From IMG/VR virus record IMGVR_UViG_2693429748_000009: a DNA stretch of 34,559 nt; one strand, 5' to 3'. The DNA is from a virus. Its lineage: Duplodnaviria > Heunggongvirae > Uroviricota > Caudoviricetes. Shown piece after piece: positions 1-26,638 of this stretch. The notes under the pieces are model-generated. The model saw only the letters and a list, made by a program, of their open reading frames with translations. It was not told where the DNA came from and did no database searches. Every line of letters starts with the position of its first letter. The stretch's first letter is position 1. A program made the position numbers and the translations under genes.

Positions 1-650
1 AAAACCAGAACGGCGCAGATATTCCGGGGAAAGATACCTTCACCAAAAATATTGGTGCCTGCCGCGCATATAGCTCATGGCTGAATATTGGTGGCGATAG
101 TCAGGTCTGGACAACCGCGCAATTTATTTCGTGGCTGGAGAGTCAGGGAGCATTTAACCATCCTTACTGGATGTGCAAAGGCTCATGGGCTTATGCAAAT
201 AATAAGGTCATTACAGATACAGGTTGCGGAAATATTTGTCTTGCAGGTGCTGTGGTGGAAGTTATTGGCACTCGCGGCGCAATGACCATACGCGTTACCA
301 CGCCGAGCACGTCCAGCGGTGGCGGAATTACTAACGCTCAATTCACTTATATTAATCATGGTGATGCTTACGCTCCTGGCTGGCGACGAGACTACAACAC
401 GAAAAATCAACAACCTGCATTTGCTTTAGGGCAAACAGGAAGCACTGTCGGAAATGATAAAGCTGTTGGCTGGAACTGGAATAGCGGGGTCTATAACGCA
501 AACATTGGTGGCGCATCGACATTAATCCTCCACTTCAATATGAATACGGGGAGCTGCCCTGCTGTACAGTTCCGCGTGAATTACAGGAACGGCGGTATTT
601 TTTATCGTTCAGCGCGTGATGGTTATGGCTTTGAAGCTGACTGGTCAGAG
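1..650 (+). pseudogene. Side tail-fibre gene, distal variable segment (5' end outside window, frame 3), interrupted by IS600 after codon GAG at 648..650; the reading frame resumes at 4876
   Basis: Open frame from position 3 encodes ...GSTVGNDKAVGWNWNSGVYNANIGGASTLILHFNMNTGSCPAVQFRVNYRNGGIFYRSARDGYGFEADWSE, parallel to the fibre segment at 1926..2928. The stop codon TGA at 651..653 is supplied by the IS600 left end. Continuation FYTTTRKPSAGDVGA... begins at 4876. Confidence 0.75.
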
Positions 651-714
651 TGAGGTAGCCTGAGTTTAACGGACACTCCTTCCTGAAATAGAATGGCATC
701 AGAAGGAGCTAATA

Positions 715-1017
715 ATGAGCAGAAAAACCCAACGTTACTCTAAAGAGTTCAAAGCCGAAGCTGTCAGAACGGTTCTTGAAAATCAACTTTCGATCAGTGA
801 AGGCGCTTCCCGATTATCTCTTCCTGAAGGCACTTTAGGACAATGGGTTACCGCCGCCAGAAAAGGGCTCGGTACTCCTGGTTCCCGCACGGTGGCTGAA
901 CTGGAATCTGAAATTCTGCAACTGCGTAAGGCGTTAAATGAAGCTCGCCTTGAGCGAGATATATTAAAAAAAGCAACAGCGTATTTTGCACAGGAGTCGC
1001 TGAAAAATACGCGTTAA
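715..1017 (+). CDS. IS600 OrfA (transposase N-terminal HTH part)
   Basis: 100 aa MSRKTQRYSKEFKAEAVRTV..., with leucine-zipper-like C-terminus. A AAA AAA slippery heptamer at 966..972, and the -1 frame is open from 969 into orfB. Confidence 0.85.
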   Translation: MSRKTQRYSKEFKAEAVRTVLENQLSISEGASRLSLPEGTLGQWVTAARKGLGTPGSRTVAELESEILQLRKALNEARLERDILKKATAYFAQESLKNTR

Positions 1018-1052
1018 TCGAACAATGGCGACAACAATTTCCCATTGAAGCG

Positions 1053-1871
1053 ATGTGTCAGGTATTTGGTGTATCCAGGAGCGGTTATTACAACTGGGTA
1101 CAGCATGAACCCTCAGACAGAAAACAAAGTGATGAGCGGCTAAAACTGGAGATTAAGGTGGCACATATCCGCACTCGCGAAACATATGGAACCCGGCGGC
1201 TCCAGACGGAGCTGGCAGAGAATGGCATCATCGTTGGTCGTGACCGACTGGCACGTCTTCGTAAGGAGCTAAGGCTACGCTGTAAGCAGAAACGCAAGTT
1301 CAGAGCGACTACGAACTCGAACCACAATCTGCCAGTTGCGCCAAATCTGCTGAACCAGACGTTCGCTCCTACAGCACCAAATCAGGTCTGGGTGGCGGAC
1401 CTGACGTATGTTGCCACACAGGAGGGATGGTTGTACCTCGCTGGCATCAAAGATGTTTATACGTGCGAAATTGTCGGCTACGCCATGGGAGAGCGCATGA
1501 CAAAAGAGCTGACAGGTAAAGCCCTGTTTATGGCGCTCAGGAGCCAGCGCCCACCTGCCGGGCTAATCCACCACTCTGATCGAGGTTCACAGTACTGCGC
1601 ATACGATTACCGGGTCATACAGGAGCAGTCTGGTCTGAAAACATCAATGTCGCGTAAAGGTAACTGTTACGACAACGCTCCGATGGAAAGCTTCTGGGGA
1701 ACGCTGAAAAATGAGAGCCTGAGCCACTATCGTTTTAATAACCGGGATGAAGCCATCTCAGTAATACGGGAATACATTGAGATTTTCTACAATCGTCAGC
1801 GTCGTCACTCTCGTCTGGGGAATATCTCCCCGGCAGCCTTCAGGGAAAAATATCATCAGATGGCTGCTTAA
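1053..1871 (+). CDS. IS600 OrfB (integrase-like catalytic domain; probably expressed as an OrfAB fusion by -1 frameshift)
   Basis: 272 aa. IS3-family organisation; the orfB frame is open upstream to the slippery site at 966..972. Confidence 0.8.
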   Translation: MCQVFGVSRSGYYNWVQHEPSDRKQSDERLKLEIKVAHIRTRETYGTRRLQTELAENGIIVGRDRLARLRKELRLRCKQKRKFRATTNSNHNLPVAPNLLNQTFAPTAPNQVWVADLTYVATQEGWLYLAGIKDVYTCEIVGYAMGERMTKELTGKALFMALRSQRPPAGLIHHSDRGSQYCAYDYRVIQEQSGLKTSMSRKGNCYDNAPMESFWGTLKNESLSHYRFNNRDEAISVIREYIEIFYNRQRRHSRLGNISPAAFREKYHQMAA

Positions 1872-1914
1872 AAAAAGAACAAATGGTAGTGTCCGCTATT
1901 GCCAGTACACCTCA

Positions 1915-1925
1915 NNNNNNNNNNN
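1915..1925. other. Assembly gap (11 N) directly after the IS600 right end
   Basis: Run of n characters in the sequence. Confidence 0.99.
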
Positions 1926-3078
1926 CGAGCTGGCTGCGGCGCTGGGCAACGACCCGAATTTTGCGACCACCATGACTAACGCGCTTGCGGGTAAGCAACC
2001 GAAAGATGCCACCCTGACGGCGCTGGCCGGACTTACTACTGCGGCAGGCAAGTTTCCGTATTTTACGGGGAATGATGTCGCCAGCCTGGCAACCCTGACA
2101 AAAGTCGGGCGGGATATTCTTGCGAAATCGACCGTTGCTGCCGTTATCGAATACCTCGGTTTACGAGAACTCGGCACAAGCGGGGAGAAAATACCGTTAC
2201 TCAGTACAGCGAATACCTGGACTAATCGACAAACATTCAGCGGTGGCCTTTCTGGTGAACTATCCGGCAATGCTTCTACAGCTGCAAAATTAAAAACTGC
2301 CAGGAAAATAAGCAATGTGGCTTTTGATGGTTCCTCCGATATCACATTAAAAGCAAGTCATGTTGGTGCGTTTGCCTTAGGGAAAACAGGAAGCACCGTT
2401 GCGAATGATAAAGCAGTTGGATGGAACTGGAGTAGCGGAGCCTATAACGCAACTATTAGTGGTGCATCAACGTTAATTATTCATTTTTATATGGGAGAAG
2501 GAAGTTGTCCTGCAGCTCAGTTTCGGATTAATTATAAAAATGGCGGTATTTTTTATCGTTCAGCCCGTGATGGTTATGGTTTTGAAGCCGACTGGTCCGA
2601 ATTTTACACCACCAGAAAACCTTCAGCAGGAGATGTTGGTGCACTGCCGTTATCTGGTGGTCAACTGAATGGTGCACTGGGTATCGGAACATCCAGTGCT
2701 CTTGGCGGTAATTCGATTGTATTGGGTGATAATGACACGGGCTTTAAACAAAAAGGCGATGGTAATCTGGATGTTTATGCTAATAACGTCCATGTTATGC
2801 GCTTTGTCTCCGGAAGCATTCAAAGTAATAAAACCATAAATATTACGGGACGTGTTAATCCCTCGGATTACGGTAACTTTGATTCCCGCTATGTGAGAGA
2901 TGTCAGACTTGGCACACGAGTTGTTTAGACCATGAAGAAAGGCGTGATGTATGAAAAATCAGGCCATGTAATCACGGGGCTTGGTATTATCGGTGAAGTC
3001 GATGGTGATGATCCGGCAGTATTCAGACCAATACAAAAGTTAATTAACGGAACATGGTATAACGTATCGCAGGTATAA
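1926..3078 (+). pseudogene. Tail-fibre gene 3' portion (P2 H-like shared region followed by variable distal segment), 5' end lost in the gap, with an in-frame amber TAG at 2926..2928
   Basis: Translation ELAAALGNDPNF...AVIEYLGL matches the minus-strand H gene at 8569..9639 at about 98% nucleotide identity. After RLGTRVV comes TAG, then the same frame continues [49 protein letters not shown] to TAA at 3076..3078. That tail is the C-terminus kept in the other fibre cassettes (compare ...[17 protein letters not shown] at 6236). Confidence 0.7.
2144..2169. other. gix/pix-like 26-bp crossover site, variant, at the constant/variable junction of the fibre gene
   Basis: TTATCGAATACCTCGGTTTACGAGAA. 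Compare the gix-type consensus TTATCCAAAACCTCGGTTTACAGGAA (recalled from memory). Inverted relative to the sites at 7124 and 8614. Confidence 0.55.
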
Positions 3079-3080
3079 TC

Positions 3081-3614
3081 ATGCAGCATTTAAAAAACAT
3101 TGTCGCAGGTAATCCAAAAACCGTTGAACAATACCAGCTAACAAAGAATTTTGATGTTATCTGGTTATGGTCCGAAGATGGAAAAAATTGGCATGAGGAA
3201 TTAAAAAACTTTCAGGAGGATACAATAAAACTGGCTTACACAGTTGAGGGAATAATTATTGCTATAGACAAGGATGTATCAGCAATTAATCCAGAAGGTT
3301 TAAGTGTCGTTGAGTTGCCTGATATTACAGCAAATCGCCGGGCTGATATTTCGGGCAACTGGATGTTCAAAGATGGTGCGGTGATAAAGCGAACTTATAC
3401 CGAGGAAGAGCAAAGGCAACAAGCGGAAAATGAAAAGCAGAGCCTGCTGCAGCTCGTCAGGGATAAAACCCAGCTGTGGGACTCTCAGCTACAGCTGGGC
3501 ATCATTTCCGATGAGAATAAACAAAAATTAACCGAGTGGATGCTCTATGCGCAGAAGGTCGAATCCACAGACACCTCCAGCCTGCCAGTAACGTTTCCCG
3601 AACAACCAGAATGA
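3081..3614 (+). CDS. Tail-fibre assembly protein (Tfa; P2 G / Mu U family)
   Basis: 177 aa. C-terminal half is nearly identical to the Tfa at 5145..5678. The stop codon overlaps the IS600 left end. Confidence 0.8.
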
Positions 3615-3675
3615 GGTAGCCTGAGTTTAACGGACACTCCTTCCTGAAATAGAATGGCATCAGAAGGAGCTAATA

Positions 3676-3978
3676 ATGAGCAGAAAAACCCAACGTTACT
3701 CTAAAGAGTTCAAAGCCGAAGCTGTCAGAACGGTTCCTGAAAATCAACTTTCGATCAGTGAAGGCGCTTCCCGATTATCTCTTCCTGAAGGCACTTTAGG
3801 ACAATGGGTTACCGCCGCCAGAAAAGGGCTCGGTACTCCTGGTTCCCGCACGGTGGCTGAACTGGAATCTGAAATTCTGCAACTGCGTAAGGCGTTAAAT
3901 GAAGCTCGCCTTGAGCGAGATATATTAAAAAAAGCAACAGCGTATTTTGCACAGGAGTCGCTGAAAAATACGCGTTAA
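3676..3978 (+). CDS. IS600 OrfA
   Basis: 100 aa, one residue different from the copy at 715..1017. Confidence 0.85.
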   Translation: MSRKTQRYSKEFKAEAVRTVPENQLSISEGASRLSLPEGTLGQWVTAARKGLGTPGSRTVAELESEILQLRKALNEARLERDILKKATAYFAQESLKNTR

Positions 3979-4013
3979 TCGAACAATGGCGACAACAATT
4001 TCCCATTGAAGCG

Positions 4014-4832
4014 ATGTGTCAGGTATTTGGTGTATCCAGGAGCGGTTATTACAACTGGGTACAGCATGAACCCTCAGACAGAAAACAAAGTGATGAGCGG
4101 CTAAAACTGGAGATTAAGGTGGCACATATCCGCACTCGCGAAACATATGGAACCCGGCGGCTCCAGACGGAGCTGGCAGAGAATGGCATCATCGTTGGTC
4201 GTGACCGACTGGCACGTCTTCGTAAGGAGCTAAGGCTACGCTGTAAGCAGAAACGCAAGTTCAGAGCGACTACGAACTCGAACCACAATCTGCCAGTTGC
4301 GCCAAATCTGCTGAACCAGACGTTCGCTCCTACAGCACCAAATCAGGTCTGGGTGGCGGACCTGACGTATGTTGCCACACAGGAGGGATGGTTGTACCTC
4401 GCTGGCATCAAAGATGTTTATACGTGCGAAATTGTCGGCTACGCCATGGGAGAGCGCATGACAAAAGAGCTGACAGGTAAAGCCCTGTTTATGGCGCTCA
4501 GGAGCCAGCGCCCACCTGCCGGGCTAATCCACCACTCTGATCGAGGTTCACAGTACTGCGCATACGATTACCGGGTCATACAGGAGCAGTCTGGTCTGAA
4601 AACATCAATGTCGCGTAAAGGTAACTGTTACGACAACGCTCCGATGGAAAGCTTCTGGGGAACGCTGAAAAATGAGAGCCTGAGCCACTATCGTTTTAAT
4701 AACCGGGATGAAGCCATCTCAGTAATACGGGAATACATTGAGATTTTCTACAATCGTCAGCGTCGTCACTCTCGTCTGGGGAATATCTCCCCGGCAGCCT
4801 TCAGGGAAAAATATCATCAGATGGCTGCTTAA
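4014..4832 (+). CDS. IS600 OrfB
   Basis: 272 aa, identical to the copy at 1053..1871. Confidence 0.8.
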   Translation: MCQVFGVSRSGYYNWVQHEPSDRKQSDERLKLEIKVAHIRTRETYGTRRLQTELAENGIIVGRDRLARLRKELRLRCKQKRKFRATTNSNHNLPVAPNLLNQTFAPTAPNQVWVADLTYVATQEGWLYLAGIKDVYTCEIVGYAMGERMTKELTGKALFMALRSQRPPAGLIHHSDRGSQYCAYDYRVIQEQSGLKTSMSRKGNCYDNAPMESFWGTLKNESLSHYRFNNRDEAISVIREYIEIFYNRQRRHSRLGNISPAAFREKYHQMAA

Positions 4833-4875
4833 AAAAAGAACAAATGGTAGTGTCCGCTATTGCCAGTACACCTCA

Positions 4876-5142
4876 GAGTTTTACACCACAACCCGCAAAC
4901 CCTCTGCGGGAGATGTTGGTGCATATACGCAGGCAGAATGTAACTCAAGGTTTATTACAGGTATTCGCCTTGGTGGTCTGTTATCTGTTCAGACATGGAA
5001 TGGTCCCGGATGGTCTGACAGGTCAGGTTATGTTGTTACCGGTTCCGTTAACTCAAACAGAGATGAACTAATTGATACAACTCAGGCAAGGCCAATTCAG
5101 TATTGCATTAATGGGACGTGGTATAACGCGGGGAGTATTTAA
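4876..5142 (+). pseudogene. 3' part of the tail-fibre gene interrupted at 650 (distal receptor-binding end)
   Basis: Frame EFYTTTRKPSAGDVGAYTQ...ARPIQYCINGTWYNAGSI* continues ...GFEADWSE from 1..650. GAG at 4876..4878 repeats GAG at 648..650. Confidence 0.75.
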
Positions 5143-5144
5143 CG

Positions 5145-5678
5145 ATGATGCACTTAAAAAACATTTCTGCTGGTAATCCTGAAACAAAAGAGCAATACCA
5201 GCTAACGAAACAATTTAACATCAAATGGCTTTATACAGAGGATGGGAAAAACTGGTATGAGGAACAAAAGAACTTTCAGCCTGATACGTTGAAAATGGTC
5301 TATGACCACAACGGCGTTATTATTTGTATTGAAAAGGATGTTTCAGCAATTAATCCGGAAGGCGCAAGCGTCGTTGAGGTTCCTGATATTACAGCAAATC
5401 GCCGGGCTGATATTTCAGGTAAATGGATGTTCAAAGATGGCGTAGTGATAAAGCGAACTTATACCGGGGAAGAGCAGAGGCAACAAGCGGAAAATGAAAA
5501 GCAAAGCCTGCTACAGCTCGTCAGGGATAAAACCCAGCTATGGGACTCACAGCTACGGCTGGGCATTATTTCCGACGAGAATAAACAAAAATTAACCGAG
5601 TGGATGCTCTATGCGCAGAAGGTCGAATCCACAGACACCTCCAGCCTGCCAGTAACGTTTCCCGAACAACCAGAATGA
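5145..5678 (+). CDS. Tail-fibre assembly protein (Tfa)
   Basis: 177 aa, begins 2 nt after the fibre stop; paralogue of 3081..3614. Confidence 0.85.
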   Translation: MMHLKNISAGNPETKEQYQLTKQFNIKWLYTEDGKNWYEEQKNFQPDTLKMVYDHNGVIICIEKDVSAINPEGASVVEVPDITANRRADISGKWMFKDGVVIKRTYTGEEQRQQAENEKQSLLQLVRDKTQLWDSQLRLGIISDENKQKLTEWMLYAQKVESTDTSSLPVTFPEQPE

Positions 5679-5681
5679 GAG

Positions 5682-5711
5682 AAGGCCCGCTATCGGGCCT
5701 TAATTTTTATT
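5682..5711. terminator. Hairpin plus T-run between the convergent tfa genes
   Basis: AAGGCCCG-CTAT-CGGGCCTT followed by AATTTTTATT. Confidence 0.6.
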
Positions 5712-6234
5712 CAGGCTTTTGTGGCCATTCAGGATTTGCCGTATCCACACGGCTGACCAGAACACTGTAGCGTTCCCATGCTTCCAGTCGTGTGCGTTCC
5801 TCGTCCGTCGCCATATTCAGCCTGACAGCGCGTTCCAGCGGCTGGATGACTGATTCAGCTTCGGAAAGCAATGCGGCCTTTTGTGATTCGGCCTGTTGTT
5901 GCAGTTCCTGTTCTGTATATTCCCTCTTTACTACTTTACCATCCAGAAACATCCATTTTCCGTTATTGTCTGCGTGACGATTTGCCGTAATATCAGGAAC
6001 TTCAACTATGCTTAGCCCTTCAGGATTAATAGTTGAAACGTCTTTACTGACAGCAACGATGATGTTGTTCTCATCGTAAGCAATTTTTATGGTGTCTGGC
6101 TGAAAATTCTTTTGTTCCTCATACCAGTTTTTGCCATCTTCGCAAAAGAGCCATACCACGCCCGCTTTTTTAGTTAGCTGGTATTGTTCCGGTGTTTTCG
6201 GATTCCCGGCCTTAATATTTTTCAGGTGCATCAT
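5707..6234 (-). CDS. Tail-fibre assembly protein (Tfa), opposite orientation
   Basis: [22 protein letters not shown]... with the conserved Tfa N-terminus. The ORF-track start at 6270 overlaps the fibre gene, so the start at 6234 is preferred. Confidence 0.8.
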
Positions 6235-6235
6235 C

Positions 6236-7141
6236 TTAAACACTCCCCACGTTGTACCATATTCCCCCAATCAATTTCTGAATTGGCCTTCTGGCAACAG
6301 TGTCGACAATATCATCCGCATTGCTGTTAATTGCGGCTGTTAAAACATAACCTGACGCATCGCCAAAGCCGTAGTCGCGCCATACGTTTTTATATTCAAT
6401 GCTGCCAAGACGAATATCCCGAACGACATGATTATGCAGCCATGTGCTTAACCAGTTGTTTTCCCACACTGAACCATAAATATCGCCACTAGACGCAACT
6501 TGCGCACCACTTCCCAGCGCAAATCCCCCATCTGTTTTAAAAATGAAATCACCACCACCATCTGAACCGTTATTAATATGAACACCATCACCACCGTTAT
6601 CTTTCCACAAAAACATACGAATTCTTCCGTCTTCGTTGGCGAATGTAATGTGGTGGCGGTAATTACTTTTTAATCTAAAATTGCTGCCATTAGATTCAAT
6701 ATCTTTATAAAGATGTAATCCTAACTCATCAATATGTCCGATGCGCGAACCATTTGAATAGAAGCTAATAATACCATCTCCATCTTGCCTAAATCCGGTG
6801 TCGTTATCTCCCAGAACAATGGAGTTTTCACCCAGTGCGTTATCAGTAGCTCCAATAGCTAGACCTCCTTTAATTTTGGCCCCGTGGCTGACAGATATAG
6901 CACCTGTTCTCAGATTTATAGCGAATGGCCTTAATGGGCCGATATTACCGTTTTCGCCTTGTCCTTCAGCCGTCGGAATGAAATGAAGAAAATCTTCTGA
7001 ACGACGGAAAATTAGACCGAAGGTATCATTGAAAATTCGCAGCGCATTCACCGTGCCAATTTTCAGTTCTCCGGTCATTTTATCGCCGGAACGCTGAACG
7101 GCGTTACCAGCCTTGTTTACCGTTTCCTGTAAACCGAGGTT
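6236..7141 (-). CDS. Alternative tail-fibre C-terminal cassette with no start codon of its own; would be expressed only after fusion to the constant part of the fibre gene by inversion
   Basis: Minus-strand frame is open from just below the stop at 7142..7144 and reads [29 protein letters not shown]...[18 protein letters not shown]. Its first codons are encoded by the crossover site at 7124..7149. Confidence 0.7.
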
Positions 7142-7203: not shown

Positions 7204-7436
7204 GTGCTGATTGGCTATGTAAGGGTATCAACAAATGACCAGAATACAGACCTGCAACGAAACGCTCTTGTTTGTGCAGGATATGAACAAATATTTGAAG
7301 ATAAATTAAGCGGAACAAGGACAGGCCGACCTGGATTAAAACGTGCTTTAAAGCGCCTTCAAAAAGGTGACGCACTGGTTGTCTGAAAACTGGACTGACT
7401 GGGTCACTGTATGCGGCATCTTGTCGTGCTGGTGGT
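7204..7436 (+). pseudogene. pin: Pin/Gin/Hin-family serine DNA invertase, inactivated: two nonsense codons then truncation into a tfa 3' remnant
   Basis: GTG-start frame MLIGYVRVSTNDQNTDLQRNALVCAGYEQIFEDKLSGTRTGRPGLKRALKRLQKGDALVV reaches TGA at 7384..7386 where Trp is expected; a second TGA at 7396..7398. At about 7437 the frame merges into tfa-derived sequence. Confidence 0.75.
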
Positions 7437-7531
7437 GGAAGCCTAGAAAAAGTATCGGGTGTTGCTGAACCGTGTTGATACATCAACTGCACCTGATATT
7501 GAGTGGCCTACGAACCCTGTCAGGGAGTAAT
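7437..7531 (+). repeat. tfa 3'-end remnant (copy 1 of a 72-bp direct repeat) fused downstream of the pin pseudogene
   Basis: Encodes (E)[23 protein letters not shown]..., a lambda-Tfa-like C-terminus. Repeated at 8486..8557 with two mismatches. Confidence 0.7.
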
Positions 7532-7584: not shown

Positions 7585-8253
7585 CTATTTTTTCCCTGAA
7601 GCGGAAAACATTACTACAGTACCTTGAACCCTGGTTTTAACATTCTCGAAATGCTCTGAGAGTATATGTGTTAAGCCTTCTTCGGAATCTTTTGTGTTTG
7701 AAAAGATGCCTTTCTGATTGTAAATGCGCATCAGTTTTTGACCGAAGCTATTGTGCACAACTCCATCGCCAAGAATTGTGGCTCCGTATAGAGTTCCATC
7801 ATCAGTTAAGGCCTGCGCCGCATTGCGTATTACACAGCTTTTTGTAGATATATTTCCAGGCAGGCAGTGAAGAAGGTAAAACATGGAAATGGAATCAAAT
7901 TGACCATGTAACGCCGCGGGATAAGGTTCAAAAACATCATGGCTAATTTTATGTTTAATTTTTGATTCCCCAGCCCTTGTAGATGCCGCGTTCAGGCTAG
8001 CTTCGTTCAAATCCATTAAAGATATCAGACTACTCTCAGGTACGTGAGTAAGGTAAAACCCAGTTCCAACACCAATATCCAGATGGTTGTTACCTAAATG
8101 TTCCAGAAAGTGTGGAAGAAGGTGTTCCTTTGTAGGACATCCCCATGCAAGCCGATTTGATACTCCCAAAACCCACCAGTCATAAAGCTTTAGGGTAAGT
8201 GGTGTGTAAATTTTAGCCCCATCATCTGTGTTTTTTTTCATTAATTTCACCAT
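7585..8253 (-). CDS. Class-I SAM-dependent methyltransferase (small-molecule/RNA type, not an obvious DNA methyltransferase), AT-rich
   Basis: 222 aa with motif I LDIGVGTGFY. No DPPY/NPPY or C5-methyltransferase motifs seen. Low GC compared with its neighbours. Alternative start at 8241. Confidence 0.7.
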   Translation of the reverse strand: MVKLMKKNTDDGAKIYTPLTLKLYDWWVLGVSNRLAWGCPTKEHLLPHFLEHLGNNHLDIGVGTGFYLTHVPESSLISLMDLNEASLNAASTRAGESKIKHKISHDVFEPYPAALHGQFDSISMFYLLHCLPGNISTKSCVIRNAAQALTDDGTLYGATILGDGVVHNSFGQKLMRIYNQKGIFSNTKDSEEGLTHILSEHFENVKTRVQGTVVMFSASGKK

Positions 8254-8355
8254 ATTATAGTTTTATTTGTGAATTAAATCAATTATGGCGATGAATTACA
8301 AGGGGTTAAATGCTGCCGCAGCATAGCGATATTGAAATAGCCTAGTATGCTTCGA

Positions 8356-8557
8356 TACAGCAGGAGCCGAATGGCTGGAAGACCGTCACCACACAGTTCT
8401 ACATCCAGGAATTTAGTGAGTATATTGCGCCACTGCAGGATGCTGTAGATCTGGAGATCGCAACGGAGGAAGAAAACTCGTTGCTGGAAGCCTGGAAGAA
8501 GTATCGGGTGTTGCTGAACCGTGTTGATACATCAACTGCACCTGATATTGAGTGGCC
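8356..8557 (+). pseudogene. Tail-fibre assembly gene 3' fragment (copy 2 of the 72-bp repeat), running into the gap
   Basis: Frame ...[49 protein letters not shown], lambda Tfa C-terminus-like; upstream in-frame TAG. Confidence 0.6.
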
Positions 8558-8568
8558 NNNNNNNNNNN
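8558..8568. other. Assembly gap (11 N)
   Basis: Run of n characters. Confidence 0.99.
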
Positions 8569-9639
8569 GCCGTTCTGGTTTTTCTGTAATGCGCCAGAAG
8601 CCTGATTTACCGTTTCCTGTAAACCGAGGTATTCGATAACGGCGGCAACGGTCGATTTCGCAAGAATATCCCGCCCGACTTTTGTCAGGGTTGCCAGGCT
8701 GGCGACATCATTCCCCGTAAAATACGGAAACCTGTCTGCCGCAGTAGTAAGTCCGGCCAGCGCCGTCAGGGTGGCATCTTTCGGTTGCTTACCCGCAAGC
8801 GCGTTAGTCATGGTGGTCGCAAAATTCGGGTCGTTGCCCAGCGCCGCCGCCAGCTCGTTCAGTGTGTTCAGTGCATCAGGCGAAGAGTCTACAAGTGCGG
8901 CAATCGCAGCCATAACGAAAGCCGTGCTTGCGATTTGGGTATTATTCGTTCCCTGTCGCGCAGTTGGTGTTGTTGGCGTTCCGGTCAGTGCCGGGCTGTT
9001 TAATGGGGCTTTCTTGTTCGTTTCATCCATTACTGCCTTAACGGCTTTTGGTGTCGCTGCCAGCGTTTCAGACGTGCTGTTGGTGGCGTTGCTGAGCTGG
9101 ACAAGGCCTTTTGCGGTCAGCGAGGCGTCCGGGTGACGTCGTGACTGTTCATGCTCTTTCAGTTTGTCATCCACGTAATTCACTGTGGCCATCACCATGG
9201 TGTTATCCACGGTAAGCGCCACAGTGGCAGTGCTGGATACGGTCAGAATGGTGCGAAATGTTTGTGCACGTCCGGATCCTTCGGCAACGGTTGGCTTGTA
9301 ACTTTCGGCAGTATTGCCTACCGCGATCAAATCGCCGTGCTCATCAAACACACCAATTTCCCGGATCCAGAATCCGCCCGTTTCAGGAGGAATAACCAGC
9401 TCCGCAATAATGTGGTTCTGATGTGTTGCGTCCAGGGTGACGCGATTAACGGTATGTCGCCACACCTCATGCACAAGACGGGTCTGCTTACTGTCTGGCG
9501 TGGGTAAAGTACCGCCGCCGTCACCCACGGCCATATGTGTCAGGCGGACAGGTTTCCCATCTGGCGCGGTTGCCTGCGCTAATTTTTTTGCACCCGTATC
9601 GGTGATAATGGTTTTAAATTTTCGTGTTGTGGTACTCAT
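8569..9639 (-). CDS. P2 gpH-like tail fibre, N-terminal and shared part; 3' end lost in the gap
   Basis: MSTTTRKFKTIITDTGAKKL... with repeated LTAKG/SATNSTSETLAATPKAVK-type motifs. Sits after gpI/gpJ as in P2. The ORF-track residues beyond the gap are artefact. Confidence 0.8.
8614..8639. other. gix/pix-like 26-bp crossover site inside the P2-like H gene
   Basis: TTCCTGTAAACCGAGGTATTCGATAA on the plus strand; codes ...[11 protein letters not shown] on the minus strand. Confidence 0.6.
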
Positions 9640-9641
9640 GC

Positions 9642-10172
9642 TTAATCGTCCGGATAAATGGTAATGACTTCACCGTCGTAAGTTGCTGCTGCCGCGAAAA
9701 TATCTCCCTGAATCTCCTGAATGATATTCAGCCCTGTCATGTGGCGGCTGACCGGGCGGGCATCAGCAATCAACCGCTCCATTTCCAGATACATTTCCTC
9801 CGTCACGCCACTGTCCAGCGTGCCAACATCAATCTTGAATGTTCCGGGTTCGCCGTTGAACTCCCACCACTCAGACACGCGAATGAGGTATCCCAGCGGC
9901 TCAATGGCCCGTCGCAGGGCGCTGATGGTTCCTTTGTGTCGGTGTATCAGCCATGCATCACGAATCACCTGTCGCTTTGTCTCTTCCGGCCAGTTGCGAT
10001 CCCAGCGGTCAACGGAAAACGCCCAGGCGAGATAAGGCAGCAGATGCACCGGGCAGGTGTCCGGCGACCACAGCGTGTTGAGGTCTGCCGGAATGTCTGT
10101 AATGCGTGTTCCGACGGCTTCGGCACAACGCATGAAATTGCTGGCTGATGGTGGTAACAGTGAATTACTCAT
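9642..10172 (-). CDS. Baseplate assembly protein (P2 gpI-like)
   Basis: Synteny plus motif LAWAFSVDRWD. Start chosen at MSNSLLPP. Confidence 0.75.
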   Translation of the reverse strand: MSNSLLPPSASNFMRCAEAVGTRITDIPADLNTLWSPDTCPVHLLPYLAWAFSVDRWDRNWPEETKRQVIRDAWLIHRHKGTISALRRAIEPLGYLIRVSEWWEFNGEPGTFKIDVGTLDSGVTEEMYLEMERLIADARPVSRHMTGLNIIQEIQGDIFAAAATYDGEVITIYPDD

Positions 10173-11061
10173 TACGCCCACCTTCGCTGATGGTGAATGA
10201 CTCACAGCGCGCCGCCTGTATGTCGCTGATGGCCATATTCTGTGTGGGTTCGATTATCTCCACGCGTTGCACACCGTGCACATGCAGTGCGGCAGCAATG
10301 GCGGACAACGCCACGTCCTGACCGATAAGCCCCTGCTCAGCCAGCCACTTCCTGAACGACGATTCAGCCGCAGCCAGAATAGGTTCGGATTCCGGACCGG
10401 GGTAAAAGTACAGTTTTGCATTCAGCCGCCATGTCACGATTCTGGCACTCTGTACGGTCAGGCGGTCGGCCACCGGGCGGGTATCCTCTGCATTCAGAAC
10501 GGCGCGAACGGTATTAAGCAACGCCTCCGTTGCTGTGCCGTCGCCCTCAGTGGACAGGATGGAAACCGTCACATTTGCCGGAGACGGACTGATGGCCCGC
10601 GCATCGCGCACCAGACCGCTGGCGCTGCGGGCAAAATACTCGTATGCGCCTGACGGGCCTGCAACACTCAGGCCGTCATACGCCCGCTGCGCCCGCAGTC
10701 TCAGCGAGGTGTCGTTCTCCATCACCACGTCGGTGGTATCCGTTGCCGGAGTGATAACCAGGCGCTTTGTGTTCATATTGCCCGCGAGGTTGTCCAGGTC
10801 TGTTCCGGCGCTGTGGCTCAACATGCAGGCGCGTGCGGCCTCATTGACCCGCTGGCGTAACAGCATTTCACGAAACGACATGGTTTGAGCGATAACGTTC
10901 AGGGGTTCCGATTCCAGTTCCAGTGCGGCGGAGACGACTTCACGCTGTTCGGCGGGATAAGCTGCAATCATCATGGCCTTTGTGTCAGCCAGAATTGCCT
11001 CAAAGTCAGGCTCCGCGATGATGGCGGGTTCCGGTAACTGGGAAAGGTCAACGGCAGGCAT
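10165..11061 (-). CDS. Baseplate assembly protein J (P2 gpJ-like)
   Basis: 298 aa, position between W and I. Confidence 0.75.
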   Translation of the reverse strand: MPAVDLSQLPEPAIIAEPDFEAILADTKAMMIAAYPAEQREVVSAALELESEPLNVIAQTMSFREMLLRQRVNEAARACMLSHSAGTDLDNLAGNMNTKRLVITPATDTTDVVMENDTSLRLRAQRAYDGLSVAGPSGAYEYFARSASGLVRDARAISPSPANVTVSILSTEGDGTATEALLNTVRAVLNAEDTRPVADRLTVQSARIVTWRLNAKLYFYPGPESEPILAAAESSFRKWLAEQGLIGQDVALSAIAAALHVHGVQRVEIIEPTQNMAISDIQAARCESFTISEGGRNE

Positions 11062-22779: not shown

Positions 22780-23739
22780 TTACTCCTTGTCCATTGCGTA
22801 CAGCCCATTAACCAGAGCAAACTGTGGCACCCCGTCCGCGATGAAAGTCGCATTAACTCCGCAGGCTTCGCGGATAGCGGGTGCCACAATCTCCGCCCCT
22901 CCACCGACAACCATCACCCGCCCGTAACCCGAAAAACCCGCCAGCGCGCGGATCACGCGTTGTTTCAGTGTTTCTTCCTTTTCACGAATAACCGCCATCA
23001 GGCTGGCGTAATGCGCGTCATTGTGGATGTGCTGGCGCAGCCAGGCTTCATCATGGCGATGTTCGATAATGGTATTGGCGATGTGGTGACTGGTGCGCAT
23101 ACCGTTAGTGGCCATCACCGACAGTACGGCATCGGCCATCAGAGAAACGCCTACGTGTGGATCGCAAAACACCTGGCTGATACCTGCCAGTTGCCCCTGA
23201 ACCTTTGCCACATCCAGCGTGGTTCCGCCCAAATCCACAATCAGCAGGGATTCAAACGGACTCATGTCAGCCAGTGCCTTAAAGCCAGCCGGAATGGATT
23301 CAGGCATAACCCGCACGTTACGGATAGTGAATGCTTCGCCGTTCTGGTACTCCACCGGGCGCATAACGTTCGCTTTTTTGCGGTTGATGTTGGCCATGTC
23401 CGGCTGTGCGTTTGTGTCGAAATACTCGCTCAGTGGCAGGGTGACAACCACATCCACCTCCTGTGGCGTGATGCCTGATTTGACCAGCGCGTGATGAATG
23501 GCAATGACATTTACATCGCTGTACTGGTATTGCGTGTCGGTTGTCTGGACAAAGCGATCGCTGACCGGATCAAAACCATAGCGCACGCCATCAAGCATGT
23601 AGTTCGCGGGCTGCATGCCACCGAACGGCGCAGACCATTCCGACTTGAAGCTGTTCGGGCTGATGGCGTTGCGGCGTTCGCCGTTCTCAGTCCATGCCAG
23701 CTTGATGTTGGTGGAGCCGTCGTCGATACAAATTTTCAT
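22780..23739 (-). CDS. parM: ParM/StbA-family actin-like segregation ATPase
   Basis: 319 aa: MKICIDDGSTNIKLAW..., YSDVNVIAIHHAL, MPESIPAG, DLGGTTLD, GGGAEIV. Close to R1 ParM as recalled. Confidence 0.8.
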   Translation of the reverse strand: MKICIDDGSTNIKLAWTENGERRNAISPNSFKSEWSAPFGGMQPANYMLDGVRYGFDPVSDRFVQTTDTQYQYSDVNVIAIHHALVKSGITPQEVDVVVTLPLSEYFDTNAQPDMANINRKKANVMRPVEYQNGEAFTIRNVRVMPESIPAGFKALADMSPFESLLIVDLGGTTLDVAKVQGQLAGISQVFCDPHVGVSLMADAVLSVMATNGMRTSHHIANTIIEHRHDEAWLRQHIHNDAHYASLMAVIREKEETLKQRVIRALAGFSGYGRVMVVGGGAEIVAPAIREACGVNATFIADGVPQFALVNGLYAMDKE

Positions 23740-23767: not shown

Positions 23768-23882
23768 TCGTTTACGGGATTCTGAAATCCCGTTTTTGCC
23801 TGTTTTGTGCGCGCTTCATATATCGCTGCGCGTTTTTTGCTCATTTACGGGATTCGTGAGTCCCGTTTCTGTCTGTTTTTTG
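23768..23882. repeat. Two roughly 40-bp direct repeats, each with internal dyad symmetry, upstream of parM (candidate parC centromere/operator)
   Basis: TTTACGGGATTCTGAAATCCCGTTTTTGCCTGTTTTG at 23768..23807 and TTTACGGGATTCGTGAGTCCCGTTTCTGTCTGTTTTTTG at 23842..23882. The second overlaps the last codons of gene A. Confidence 0.45.
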
Positions 23883-26638
23883 TTTCCACTGGTCAGGCCA
23901 CCCCGCAGCAGGTCTGCTTTGCGGCGGGCGCGTTCAGTGGTTTCACTGATTCTCTGTGCGTGCTCTGCGTCGCGGATGGCGCGCAGCATGTCAGAAAGCA
24001 CGGTAACGGGTGTTTTCATGGTGTTCTGGTCCTGCTGAAGTGTGGATGCCAGGCGTGCGGCGGCTTCAGGGTCTGATGCCCCCAGCTGTGTCAGATAGCT
24101 GGCGACCGGGTTATGGCGGATCTCCGTGCTGCTTACGCCATGATTACGGCTCAGGCGCTGCCAGAGCTGCGTGATTCGGCTGTCCGGGCGGGTATCCGGT
24201 TTGCGTACAATTTCAAATCCCTGCGGTGCAATGATGCTGCCGTCAACGTACAGACTGCCGCCCCGTAACAGGTGCTGCATCTGTTGTTCACCGATATGCA
24301 GGCCGAGAGATTCAGCAGACTCCCGCCATTCTTTAGCGAGTAATTCGTGGTTATCAGGCAAAGGCCGCTGCTGTTTGCGGCTCTGTGTCCAGCTCTGCAT
24401 TTCATCACTGCTGTTTTTTGCCTGTTTGTCACGAAGCGAACGCATCAGCGCCCGGCGTTCGTGCCGTTTCAGTGAGCGCATCCATTCATCCACATCAACG
24501 CCGTCAGGGAGCTGCGGCCACGGTGCTGGCCGTTCTTCCGGCTGTTCTGTCCCGTTGTTGTCCGTTTCCTGTACACGGGGACAGTTATTGCCACGAGTCC
24601 AAGGGGCGGCAGGGCCGCCCTGAAGGTCAAAACCATTTTCGCGGGCGCTGTCTTCCGCTTCCGGTTTGCGTCTTACCAGCTTCCAGTTATCCGGATGCGT
24701 GCACACACGGGAGGATTCCCCGATGAGTGGTGACCAGATCCCGTAAATCTGTACGCTCTGTTCGCCGTAATCGTTCAGCTCATCGGCGAGGTCGTAGGCG
24801 GTGCGAATCAGGTAGTCTTTGCGTGGAACAAGTACGCCGCCCTGTTTCTCTATGTAGGTGGCAAAACATCCGGCATCAGCGGCGGCAAGAACCGCATCCA
24901 TTGCGTCATCCTTCAGCCGTTGCGGGCCTTCCGGGTTGCGTGCCATCTGGCTGGCAAGGCGGCGCAGTTCACGCCATACCTGGCGGGAGGGGATGCCAAA
25001 GAACTGGAACTGGCGGACCCGGTGAAGGCGCGCCCAGCCGATGGCGCGTTCCACGCTCTCGGCCATTGATTTTCCGGTTTCGTGGTCAACGCGTGGCTTG
25101 CCCGTTTTCGGGTCGATGCCATCCACGGCGCGGCTGTCCAGGTTTTTCCCGATGTAGGTGGCGATGTAGCTGGTTGGCGTGCCTTTTGAGCCGTCTACAT
25201 ACTCCGCCTTAAAGCGCGGAGTTATGTCATCGCCCAGCTCGTGACGATCTTCCTGAATGGCAATATCGCGGGTGTGGGACACAATGGTGTCGATTTCTTC
25301 CGGATGAGCAAAGACCATCATATGCCAGTGCACGGTGCCGTCATGGTGAGGCTCCGCCGTGCGGATGCCATACCAGCGCAGGCCGTCGCGGTTCAGTTTT
25401 TTGCGGACCGTCGCAAAAAACGTGTTAACCAGGTAATCGCTGGAGTCGCGCATTGTGGCCCCGTTCCATTTGGGATTCGGATGACCGTTCTCCGTTGTGG
25501 CGTGGTATTTTGACGGGCAGGTGACAGTCAGAAACACCGCTTTGTCGCCACGGGCTTCGGCCAGAAGTTCCAGCCCCTTCATGGTGGCCATCATTTCTGC
25601 CTTACGGTGAACCGGGTTACTTACTCCCGCGTAATACACCGTCTCGAGATCAATCGTGAACCCGTCTTCATTTTCCAGCATGAAACTTTTCAGGAAATCG
25701 CGTGTTTTCTCGCGCTGTGCGCGAAACTCGCTTAACGCGTCCTGGCTCAGATAGGGCGATGTTTTTCTGGAAACCAGACAGGCGGCGCGAAGTTGTTCTT
25801 CTCTCCACTCGCAACGTAACAGCCACAGTTTGCGTTTCCACCATTCCGCACAGGTCAGGCGAAGGATTGCGCCCGGCAGCAGTTCTGTGTCCGGTTCGTG
25901 CCTCCGGTCTTTGTCTGTTGTCAGTGCGTCATAATGCGGAGGCATGGCGTGTAAGTGTAACGCCATGCGGGCCAGCATCTGATACGCCTTCAGCGTTACA
26001 TCCATGGTCAGCTCGCCATCAGTCGCGCCAAAACCATCGCAGAGTTTTTCGAAGGTGCTGCTGAACATCGCCGCCGTCATGGTGGCCAGCGTCTGTATCT
26101 GGTGTTTGTTGAGTTGCGGCAGGTAAAGCAAATCGTCCAGGCGTTCACGTCCGGCAAGGGAGCGATAACCCGGTGTCAGCCAGTGTCCGTCAGTGCGATC
26201 CAGACGTTCGAATATTTTGCGCAGGGTTCCGCGTGCATAGCGTTCCGCCTGCCAGCTCTTTTTGCCTTTCCGGCGATCGGCTTCCTGTTTTTTGCGCAGG
26301 AAGGAGAGGTGGCGAATAAGCGGATCGCGCAGATAGGACGGCAGCAGGCGCAGCGAGGCCATGGCTTCATCCACCGCGCCGCGTGCCTGTTTTCTGGCGT
26401 CTCCTGCCAGTGTGATGGTTTTGTCCTGTTTTTCCTGTGCGTCCAGGCTTTTATTAATCAGGTTGCCCAGTGGCGTGGCGGAGAACGCCGCATCAGCCAT
26501 TTCCTGGCGGCGCTCGTTCTCTGCCCGGTGGGCATCCAGCCAGGAGGAAAGCGCGGATTCAGGAGCGGGGATCCCCGTTCCTTCACGCCCCACTGCGTGG
26601 CGCGGTTGTTGCCAGTCCCTGATGTACTCTGCCGTCAT
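23816..26638 (-). CDS. Replication initiator endonuclease (P2 gpA-like, rolling-circle type)
   Basis: 940 aa with HWHMMVF metal-binding motif and the paired-tyrosine motif YIATYIGK (Y-x3-Y). The N-terminal extent is uncertain. Confidence 0.75.
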   Translation of the reverse strand: MTAEYIRDWQQPRHAVGREGTGIPAPESALSSWLDAHRAENERRQEMADAAFSATPLGNLINKSLDAQEKQDKTITLAGDARKQARGAVDEAMASLRLLPSYLRDPLIRHLSFLRKKQEADRRKGKKSWQAERYARGTLRKIFERLDRTDGHWLTPGYRSLAGRERLDDLLYLPQLNKHQIQTLATMTAAMFSSTFEKLCDGFGATDGELTMDVTLKAYQMLARMALHLHAMPPHYDALTTDKDRRHEPDTELLPGAILRLTCAEWWKRKLWLLRCEWREEQLRAACLVSRKTSPYLSQDALSEFRAQREKTRDFLKSFMLENEDGFTIDLETVYYAGVSNPVHRKAEMMATMKGLELLAEARGDKAVFLTVTCPSKYHATTENGHPNPKWNGATMRDSSDYLVNTFFATVRKKLNRDGLRWYGIRTAEPHHDGTVHWHMMVFAHPEEIDTIVSHTRDIAIQEDRHELGDDITPRFKAEYVDGSKGTPTSYIATYIGKNLDSRAVDGIDPKTGKPRVDHETGKSMAESVERAIGWARLHRVRQFQFFGIPSRQVWRELRRLASQMARNPEGPQRLKDDAMDAVLAAADAGCFATYIEKQGGVLVPRKDYLIRTAYDLADELNDYGEQSVQIYGIWSPLIGESSRVCTHPDNWKLVRRKPEAEDSARENGFDLQGGPAAPWTRGNNCPRVQETDNNGTEQPEERPAPWPQLPDGVDVDEWMRSLKRHERRALMRSLRDKQAKNSSDEMQSWTQSRKQQRPLPDNHELLAKEWRESAESLGLHIGEQQMQHLLRGGSLYVDGSIIAPQGFEIVRKPDTRPDSRITQLWQRLSRNHGVSSTEIRHNPVASYLTQLGASDPEAAARLASTLQQDQNTMKTPVTVLSDMLRAIRDAEHAQRISETTERARRKADLLRGGLTSGNKKQTETGLTNPVNEQKTRSDI

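Follow-up and report, generated by a model that had tools for sequence, protein, structure and literature searches.

The stretch analysed here is a 34,559-nucleotide (nt) Caudoviricetes record of IMG/VR (IMGVR_UViG_2693429748_000009; hereafter the window). It contains two direct copies of the insertion sequence (IS) IS600, which bracket a tail-fibre cassette and are followed and preceded by a matching GAG on their outer sides. The window is probably a draft scaffold that mixes the tail-fibre modules of two prophages of Shigella sonnei. The bracketed cassette is best explained, with a probability of about 0.65, as a chimera of assembly and scaffolding between two paralogous prophage fibre loci, one P2-like and one lambdoid, that also involves a second IS600. 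A preliminary description of the sequence had offered two alternatives, a single IS600 insertion that was mis-scaffolded and a composite unit that inserted as a block. The former is favoured, although its simple form is insufficient since the junction at 3611/3612 sits in a gap-free contig. The composite unit is disfavoured by an unsequenced inner junction, a P2-type allele at position 3560 and an uninterrupted junction between the lambdoid tfa gene and its downstream sequence.

The outer junctions lie in H, the fibre gene of the P2-like prophage, which consists of a constant part and a variable region (SvA). The elements and the parts of H are as follows.

651..1914, plus strand: IS600 copy 1, 1264 base pairs (bp), T at 776; left junction with SvA, right end running into an N gap
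3612..4875, plus strand: IS600 copy 2, 1264 bp, C at 3737; flanked by GAA on the left and GAG on the right
1..650, plus strand: 5' part of SvA, 100% identical to 9085..9735 of the P2-type reference locus L019
648..650: left copy of the GAG target-site duplication
4876..4878: right copy of the GAG target-site duplication
4876..5142, plus strand: 3' part of SvA, with the final 87-88 codons of H of the P2-like prophage; no difference from L019 from its position 9729 onward
5145..5678, plus strand: tfaA, the P2-like fibre assembly gene, with a Caudo_TAP match
8569..9639, minus strand: constant part of H; it includes a crossover site (8614-8630) and the initial 45 nt of SvA, and physically it continues into window position 15

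The element is IS600, a member of the IS3 family, as judged by its size and identity, its coding and terminal features and its 3-bp duplication. The two full-length copies differ at a single nucleotide (T at 776, C at 3737) and are both 99.8% identical to elements annotated as 'IS3-like element IS600 family transposase' in complete genomes. The element encodes an orfA of 100 amino acids (aa) and an orfB of 272 aa; the precomputed Pfam assignments are HTH_Tnp_1 for an identical orfA and HTH_21, rve, rve_3 and rve_2 for the adjacent 272-aa orfB call. An A7G frameshift motif is located at 3927, and the ends (TGAGG.../...CCTCA) form imperfect terminal inverted repeats. Identical 3-bp flanks are found at 9 of 15 distinct full-length IS600 copies in reference chromosomes, which bears out the expectation that such a duplication is typical of the element. 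In all these features, together with a GAG duplication at a site that is intact in relatives, the element resembles ordinary Shigella IS600 insertions. Nothing sets it apart from them; the receptor-binding end of a prophage fibre gene is simply where it landed.

A single, simple IS600 insertion in H, with GAG as the 3-bp duplication, has its ends at junctions 650/651 and 4875/4876. This follows because an empty site with one GAG exists, the rebuilt open reading frame (ORF) is intact and 3-bp duplications are usual for the element. The presence of two direct copies with GAG outside both was confirmed from the sequence, and so was the claim that the fibre frame ending at 650 resumes at 4876. The empty-site 60-mer (621-650 joined to 4879-4908, with a single GAG) has an exact match in 8 related loci. 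The reverse complement of 8569..9639, joined to 15..650 and 4879..5142, translates into an intact P2-type H fibre of 656 aa, with 2 aa differences from a protein named 'phage tail protein [Shigella sonnei]' in its sources. IS600 cuts this gene at codon 569 of 656 and detaches the last 87 codons. The gp37_C match in 1..650 is slightly under the Pfam cutoff (21.5 vs 22.5 bits). The tfaA gene shows zero nucleotide differences from 6 of 10 P2-type loci, and its exact protein was matched in 10 loci (L011-L020), 9 of them in P2-like prophages and the tenth (L014) with a different tail-gene context. In the homologue search with full H, where source names include Shigella sonnei and E. coli O28ac, the matches listed were filled by full-length fibres and contained no cluster of 569-aa truncated H; the partial H product of the first contig has no exact-protein match on record.

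Both ends of the insertion recur in other assemblies, the left junction (H/IS600) in L032, a 649-nt contig of GCA_001256555.1, and the right junction (IS600/SvA 3' part) in L031 (GCA_001255415.1, CXCB01000030.1). Because of this recurrence in two further assemblies, the IS600 insertion is real and marks a small lineage.

The sequence between the two IS600 copies belongs to a different prophage. It holds three features.

1926..2928, plus strand: 3' part of stfB, a side tail-fibre gene, with gp37_C and gp37_trimer matches
2932..3078, plus strand: 48-aa ORF, a split-off C-terminal piece of stfB that is a gene call in reference chromosomes
3081..3614, plus strand: tfaB, the lambdoid tail-fibre assembly gene, with a Caudo_TAP match; the TGA that stops it coincides with bases 1 to 3 of IS600 copy 2

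These correspond to the stf 3' part, 48-aa ORF and tfaB module of a lambdoid prophage located beside the trp operon. The region is 99.94% identical (1 mismatch in 1690 nt) to 8846..10535 of the lambdoid reference locus L008. The preliminary description had considered that 1926..3611 might be located elsewhere in the genome, and this part stands, since the lambdoid prophage adjoins trp in all 10 of the complete or near-complete chromosomes examined (L001-L010). The exact tfaB protein was found only in these trp-adjacent lambdoid prophages (10 chromosome-size records). Their layout comprises J, lom, stf (875 aa), the 48-aa ORF and tfaB, then tfa' and an alternative fibre tip (Sv') on the opposite strand, and beyond Sv' an invertase remnant, a methyltransferase and a tfa fragment. 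No IS follows tfaB in any of the 10 lambdoid loci, where tfa' starts 28 nt later, and none is present at either boundary of the supposed passenger. One chromosome, CP026802.1, carries both prophages, at 0.93-0.95 Mb and 1.45-1.47 Mb, approximately 520 kb apart. The first 239 nt of the stfB part are 98% identical to the constant part of H (8619..8857). At its other end stfB stops at an in-frame TAG (2926-2928) that is present in the references too. The split into 875-aa and 48-aa products is also called in L008, L009, L003 and L005, and represents either an old nonsense mutation or a genuine two-gene arrangement.

Three contigs build the window, C1 (1..1914), C2 (1926..8557) and C3 (8569..34559). 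They are separated by two spacers.

1915..1925: 11-N scaffold spacer, starting directly after the final base of IS600 copy 1
8558..8568: 11-N scaffold spacer, missing from the preliminary description

The first spacer does lie at the exact right end of copy 1, as had been noted. Runs of 11 N occur twice in the window and twice in L031, and single N's are also present. The order of the contigs in the scaffold is not the physical order, because the left end of C3 overlaps the start of C1 by 14 nt (window 1-14 is the reverse complement of 8569-8582); on account of this overlap, C1 should follow the reverse complement of C3. Continuity from C3 into C1 is found in 9 related loci. In the window, the two ends are placed 8.5 kb apart, head to head, with C2 between them. 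The right end of C2, a tfa fragment repeated at 7433..7508, is unrelated to the left end of C3 in all references. We infer that the 11-N joins are placements made by the scaffolder and not physical neighbourhoods. In all complete references, the fibre segment is followed by the P2 genes for tail sheath, tube and tape measure, by U and D, and by a 195-aa invertase. None of these is in the window; they either lie on another scaffold or have been deleted.

Scaffold joins account for only part of the arrangement, as C2 is itself a mosaic. Two of its features mark where it switches between the prophages.

3513..3614 and 5577..5678, plus strand: repeat R (102 bp, exact), common to the 3' ends of tfaB and tfaA
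5679..7078, minus strand: lambdoid-type downstream module, with tfa' at 5707..6234 and the alternative fibre tip Sv' at 6236..7078

C2 is lambdoid over 1926..3512 and P2-type over 3560..3611 and 4876..5678, where it matches L019 without a mismatch. The lambdoid type returns at 5679, as indicated by six diagnostic sites in the 56 nt that follow the stop codon. Inside C2, IS600 and repeat R are the sole links between the two prophages, and the switch points fall within R. The last 55-102 nt of tfaB carry the P2-type allele: the position corresponding to 3560/5624 is T in 10 of 10 lambdoid references and C in 10 of 10 P2 references, and both copies of R in the window have C. Two more P2-type alleles are found at 5806 and 5809 inside lambdoid sequence. 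Conversely, a lambdoid-type patch at 8748-8770 inside the P2 gene H brings the exact run that C2 has in common with C3 to 112 nt. The near-identical stretches common to both prophages are this run in the constant fibre part (112 nt), R at the tfa 3' end (102 nt), a stretch in the next gene (168 nt) and IS600. The patches at 8748-8770, 3560/5624 and 5806/5809 swap alleles that all or nearly all of the 10 lambdoid and 10 P2-type reference loci keep distinct. The mixing of paralogue alleles supports repeat collapse in the consensus.

The junction between the tfa stop codon and the left end of IS600 (3611/3612) is located within this gap-free contig. As assembled, copy 2 has no duplication of its own (GAA/GAG). 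Because C2 also contains a direct junction from R to the lambdoid downstream sequence, the lambdoid tfaB must be uninterrupted there. There are two copies of R, of which the lambdoid one is uninterrupted, so the left end of this IS600 must abut the P2 copy, tfaA. An IS600 after tfaB in the lambdoid locus was considered and rejected, as the direct junction could not coexist with it. The T in copy 1 and the C in copy 2 suggest two physical IS600 copies. This site is 126 nt from each left junction and both alleles are common, with 13 T and 15 C among the IS600 copies of the loci that were fetched. The P21 variant in orfA of copy 2, considered as a tag for that particular copy, was rejected as a common variant in many copies. 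The sister assembly L031 stalled at this polymorphic T/C site. A second IS600 is thus probably located at the stop codon of tfaA, approximately 0.8 kb downstream of the first, as inferred from these junctions.

It is also conceivable, if unlikely, that only a single IS600 exists and that 3611/3612 is a gap-closure artefact, in which two stalled extensions, one through IS600 and one through tfa, were fused at the TGA(G) that both contain. Natively, tfa continues as TGAGAG and IS600 starts with TGAGG, which places the junction in a 4-nt overlap (TGAG), exactly where the paralogues begin to differ (5679). The sister scaffold has the same two contigs abutted through a single N, an earlier stage of extension, and the 3611/3612 junction was not found elsewhere in the 30 loci fetched by then, 5426 E. 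coli genomes, GTDB species representatives and JGI metagenomes. Gap closers, however, commonly need overlaps of at least 10 nt to merge sequences. In addition, the polymorphic site 126 nt from each left junction, where L031 stalled, was resolved as T in one copy and C in the other, which suggests that some reads were anchored in sequence flanking a second copy.

We favour a repeat-collapse chimera with two IS600 copies in the P2-like locus. The real P2-like arrangement would be the 5' part of H, IS600, the 3' part of H, tfaA and then IS600, with an intact lambdoid locus of stf, tfaB and tfa' elsewhere. The near-identical stretches, IS600 among them, would have been collapsed by the assembler and walked through as a loop, giving a path from the 5' part of tfaB through R and IS600 to the 3' part of SvA, on to the 5' part of tfaA, through R again and out into the lambdoid downstream sequence. 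Such a walk would be the natural linearisation of a cycle through two collapsed repeats. The error would then sit within C2, in the repeat collapse, as well as at the N gap, and the lambdoid module would be no passenger between IS copies.

Several observations weigh against this explanation. The pairing of in-edges and out-edges at R is read from the assembled sequence alone, and the mixed alleles could be products of real gene conversion instead of consensus collapse. C2 starts at 1926, 10 nt past the 112-nt run shared with H, and its start includes an stfB-specific base at 1935; the break is unexplained by the paralogues inspected, and a true boundary between IS600 and a passenger would likewise break the contig at 1926. 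The second IS600 is seen in this contig alone, with its right junction and duplication outside the window, and the R/IS600 junction is absent from the 30 loci, the 5426 E. coli genomes, the GTDB species representatives and the JGI metagenomes. Exact-pattern scans of three junctions in the GTDB representatives and the metagenomes gave 0 matches, as expected, GTDB having no separate Shigella genomes. The ORFs that cross the junctions have no exact-protein match on record, namely the 52-aa minus-strand ORF at tfa/IS600, the 134-aa ORF at the right junction and the 54-aa minus-strand ORF at the left junction. Finally, L031 also puts the stfB-tfaB contig between the 5' part of SvA and the IS600-SvA 3' part, so that two assemblies have the same order (SvA 5' part, stfB-tfaB, IS600, SvA 3' part).

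This shared order is one of the points in favour of a true composite, in which a unit of IS600, the stfB 3' part, the 48-aa ORF, tfaB and IS600 (651..4875) moved as a block into SvA and made the GAG duplication. We consider this highly improbable. The genome would then carry the lambdoid cassette twice, and the assembly error would be confined to the join between tfaA and the lambdoid downstream sequence. Like an IS-flanked composite transposon, the assembled region has two direct IS copies around 1.7 kb, the whole flanked by a 3-bp direct repeat. The GAG on both outer sides fits such a unit, but the pair is equally expected from a single IS600. Copy 1 stops at the exact last base of the IS and the start of C2 is unexplained by known paralogy, as at the boundary of a passenger; the left inner junction, however, consists of 11 N and is unsequenced. 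The one-base difference between the IS copies also speaks for a composite. The right inner junction, on the other hand, lies in R and carries the P2-type C at 3560, where two lambdoid copies would make T the majority. In contrast to a composite transposon, then, one inner junction is an N gap and the other runs through a collapsed repeat with the allele of the wrong paralogue.

In L031 the same order continues into P2-type downstream sequence, which speaks for a composite. For that reading, however, the 11 N that separate the 5' part of SvA (ending at 318) from stfB (starting at 1948) in L031 would have to stand for 1.6 kb or more, and the scaffold is unreliable. Two contigs whose ends overlap by 6 nt in the reference are set apart in it by 743 nt of N's and paralogous fragments, and runs of 121 and 54 N separate others whose overlaps measure 58 and 81 nt. 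At 4047-5297 vs 5298-6214, a different P2-like phage (approximately 70% identity, I/H region) is joined mid-gene to an S. sonnei-type H through a single N, almost certainly a false join.

IS3-family elements transpose by a copy-out-paste-in mechanism that leaves the donor intact. A donor with both IS copies should consequently persist, and the resident lambdoid prophage cannot be that donor because its R-to-downstream junction is uninterrupted in the contig. The 'passenger' is instead a resident module of another prophage. Neither a donor nor a second site was found, the unit being present at no other site in the loci, genomes and metagenomes searched for the junctions. A chance landing in a paralogous gene, in the same orientation, is improbable, whereas misassembly driven by homology predicts it. 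A literature search for IS600 composite transposons returned nothing relevant.

The contig might alternatively be essentially correct and reflect a real recombinant between the prophages, produced by homologous exchange in the 3' stretch common to the tfa genes and perhaps also between IS600 copies. A P2-derived IS600-SvA 3' part-tfaA piece would have been joined to the lambdoid locus, through an excised circle flanked by IS600 or through a large inversion or translocation. We regard this as having a small chance of being right. The piece at 4876..5678 is indeed bounded by two recombinable sequences, IS600 and R, and the mixed alleles could be gene-conversion tracts. IS600 copies without matching flanks, and the comparison of L001 and L005 vs L010, show that IS600-mediated rearrangements occur in these fibre regions. 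At position 11381 of L001, L005 and L010, one IS600 left flank in the lambdoid Sv' is combined with three different right flanks, and an AAT duplication is present only in L010. A single crossover in R, however, should leave the lambdoid T in one of the copies, and both have C. The recombinant needs two IS insertions and at least one more rare event, nothing comparable is present in the 10 complete lambdoid loci, and the sister isolate that shares the IS600 insertion has P2-type sequence after tfaA, running on into the P2-type invertase. Repeats of 47-168 nt are, moreover, exactly what short-read assemblers mis-thread.

Repeat-collapse chimeras and false scaffold joins are known from short-read assemblies. 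A widely used Illumina pipeline (Velvet, SSPACE and 120 rounds of GapFiller) yields S. sonnei assemblies with an average of 405 contigs, and its authors call the scaffolding and gap filling greedy, with false joins possible (PMC5320598). The window resembles products of such a pipeline in that contigs end at or near repeats, overlapping contigs are left unmerged and the N spacers have a fixed size; an origin in this particular pipeline is a lead only. Further traits of repeat-collapse chimeras are the full IS copies grown from one flank to the exact IS end, the mixed paralogue alleles and a sister scaffold that interleaves paralogous pieces. The start of C2 at 1926, which lacks an explanation in the paralogy inspected, is unlike them.

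Both fibre loci are invertible segments, whose remaining features in the window are listed here.

2153..2169, minus strand: invertase crossover site with 2 mismatches, left boundary of the lambdoid invertible fibre segment
7124..7140, plus strand: invertase crossover site, right boundary of the lambdoid invertible segment
8614-8630: third crossover site, in the P2-like H
7204..7386, plus strand: truncated serine invertase (pin-like) remnant of 60 codons, with a Resolvase N-terminal domain (E = 2.9e-15)

The three crossover sites have the form TTCCTGTAAACCGAGGT, for which 0.08 matches are expected by chance. They are accompanied by opposed Caudo_TAP and gp37-type genes and by the Resolvase remnant. 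The P2-type loci have a 65-nt inverted repeat and a 195-aa gene with Resolvase and HTH_7 domains; in the references their layout is H, tfaA, then tfa'' and Sv'' on the opposite strand, the 195-aa invertase and tail genes. Among the reference chromosomes the P2-type segment is found in either orientation (L011 vs L012 and L016), and so is the lambdoid one (L008 vs L001). Known fibre segments inverted by serine invertases include the Mu G segment with Gin, the P1 C segment with Cin, the e14 P segment with Pin and those of Shigella pinB, pinD and pinF. Both prophages share the plan of the Gin, Cin and Pin segments, with a constant part, crossover site, Sv and tfa, then the opposite-strand tfa' and Sv', a site and the invertase. 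They differ from it in that the lambdoid copy in the window keeps only the 60-codon invertase remnant, and that the window lacks the P2-type invertase as well as the other half of the P2-type segment. The real features of the window are an IS600 simple insertion and two invertible fibre segments of the Gin/Cin/Pin type, and nothing departs from these kinds. In L012, a further IS600 (7772-9035) lies within the crossover site of the P2-type segment, with a 3-bp duplication and the flanks ...ctaaAAC and AACctcggttta; this should block inversion.

Near the right end of C2, a 76-nt fragment of a lambda-type tfa 3' end at 7433-7508 is repeated with 96% identity at 8482-8557, and a 222-aa methyltransferase gene (7585-8253, minus strand) lies between the two. 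C3 is a P2-like prophage, collinear with the L019 prophage at 99.88% over 9.1 kb, in which gene families appear in the order O, N, M, L, X, lysis genes, R, S, V, W, J, I and H. To the right of these come genes for a GPA replication protein, a ParM-like protein and an integrase, followed by btuC through nlpC. The actin-like segregation gene of the ParM/StbA type adjoins an unusually long GPA replication protein of 940 aa (22783-23739 and 23819-26638).

For drafts of Shigella genomes, these findings are a caution. Fibre modules share exact stretches of 50-170 nt and IS600 is present in dozens of copies, so that scaffolds can yield convincing 'composite transposons', target duplication included. 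It is very unlikely that the scaffold is right and that a receptor-binding tip with its chaperone (stfB 3' part and tfaB), bracketed by IS600, was copied from the lambdoid prophage into the P2-like fibre gene. If this were true, IS elements would shuffle host-range cassettes between unrelated prophages, and a true IS600-borne receptor-binding cassette would show a route by which host-range modules are exchanged between phage families; the evidence here does not support it. The real biology is ordinary. In one Shigella lineage, an invertible P2-type fibre has lost one of its two alternative tips to IS600, which adds to prophage decay. A weaker form of the idea follows from the chimera reading, in which two IS600 copies would bracket the 3' part of SvA and tfaA (4876..5678), and this 0.8-kb tip-plus-chaperone piece would be a potential translocatable or deletable unit.

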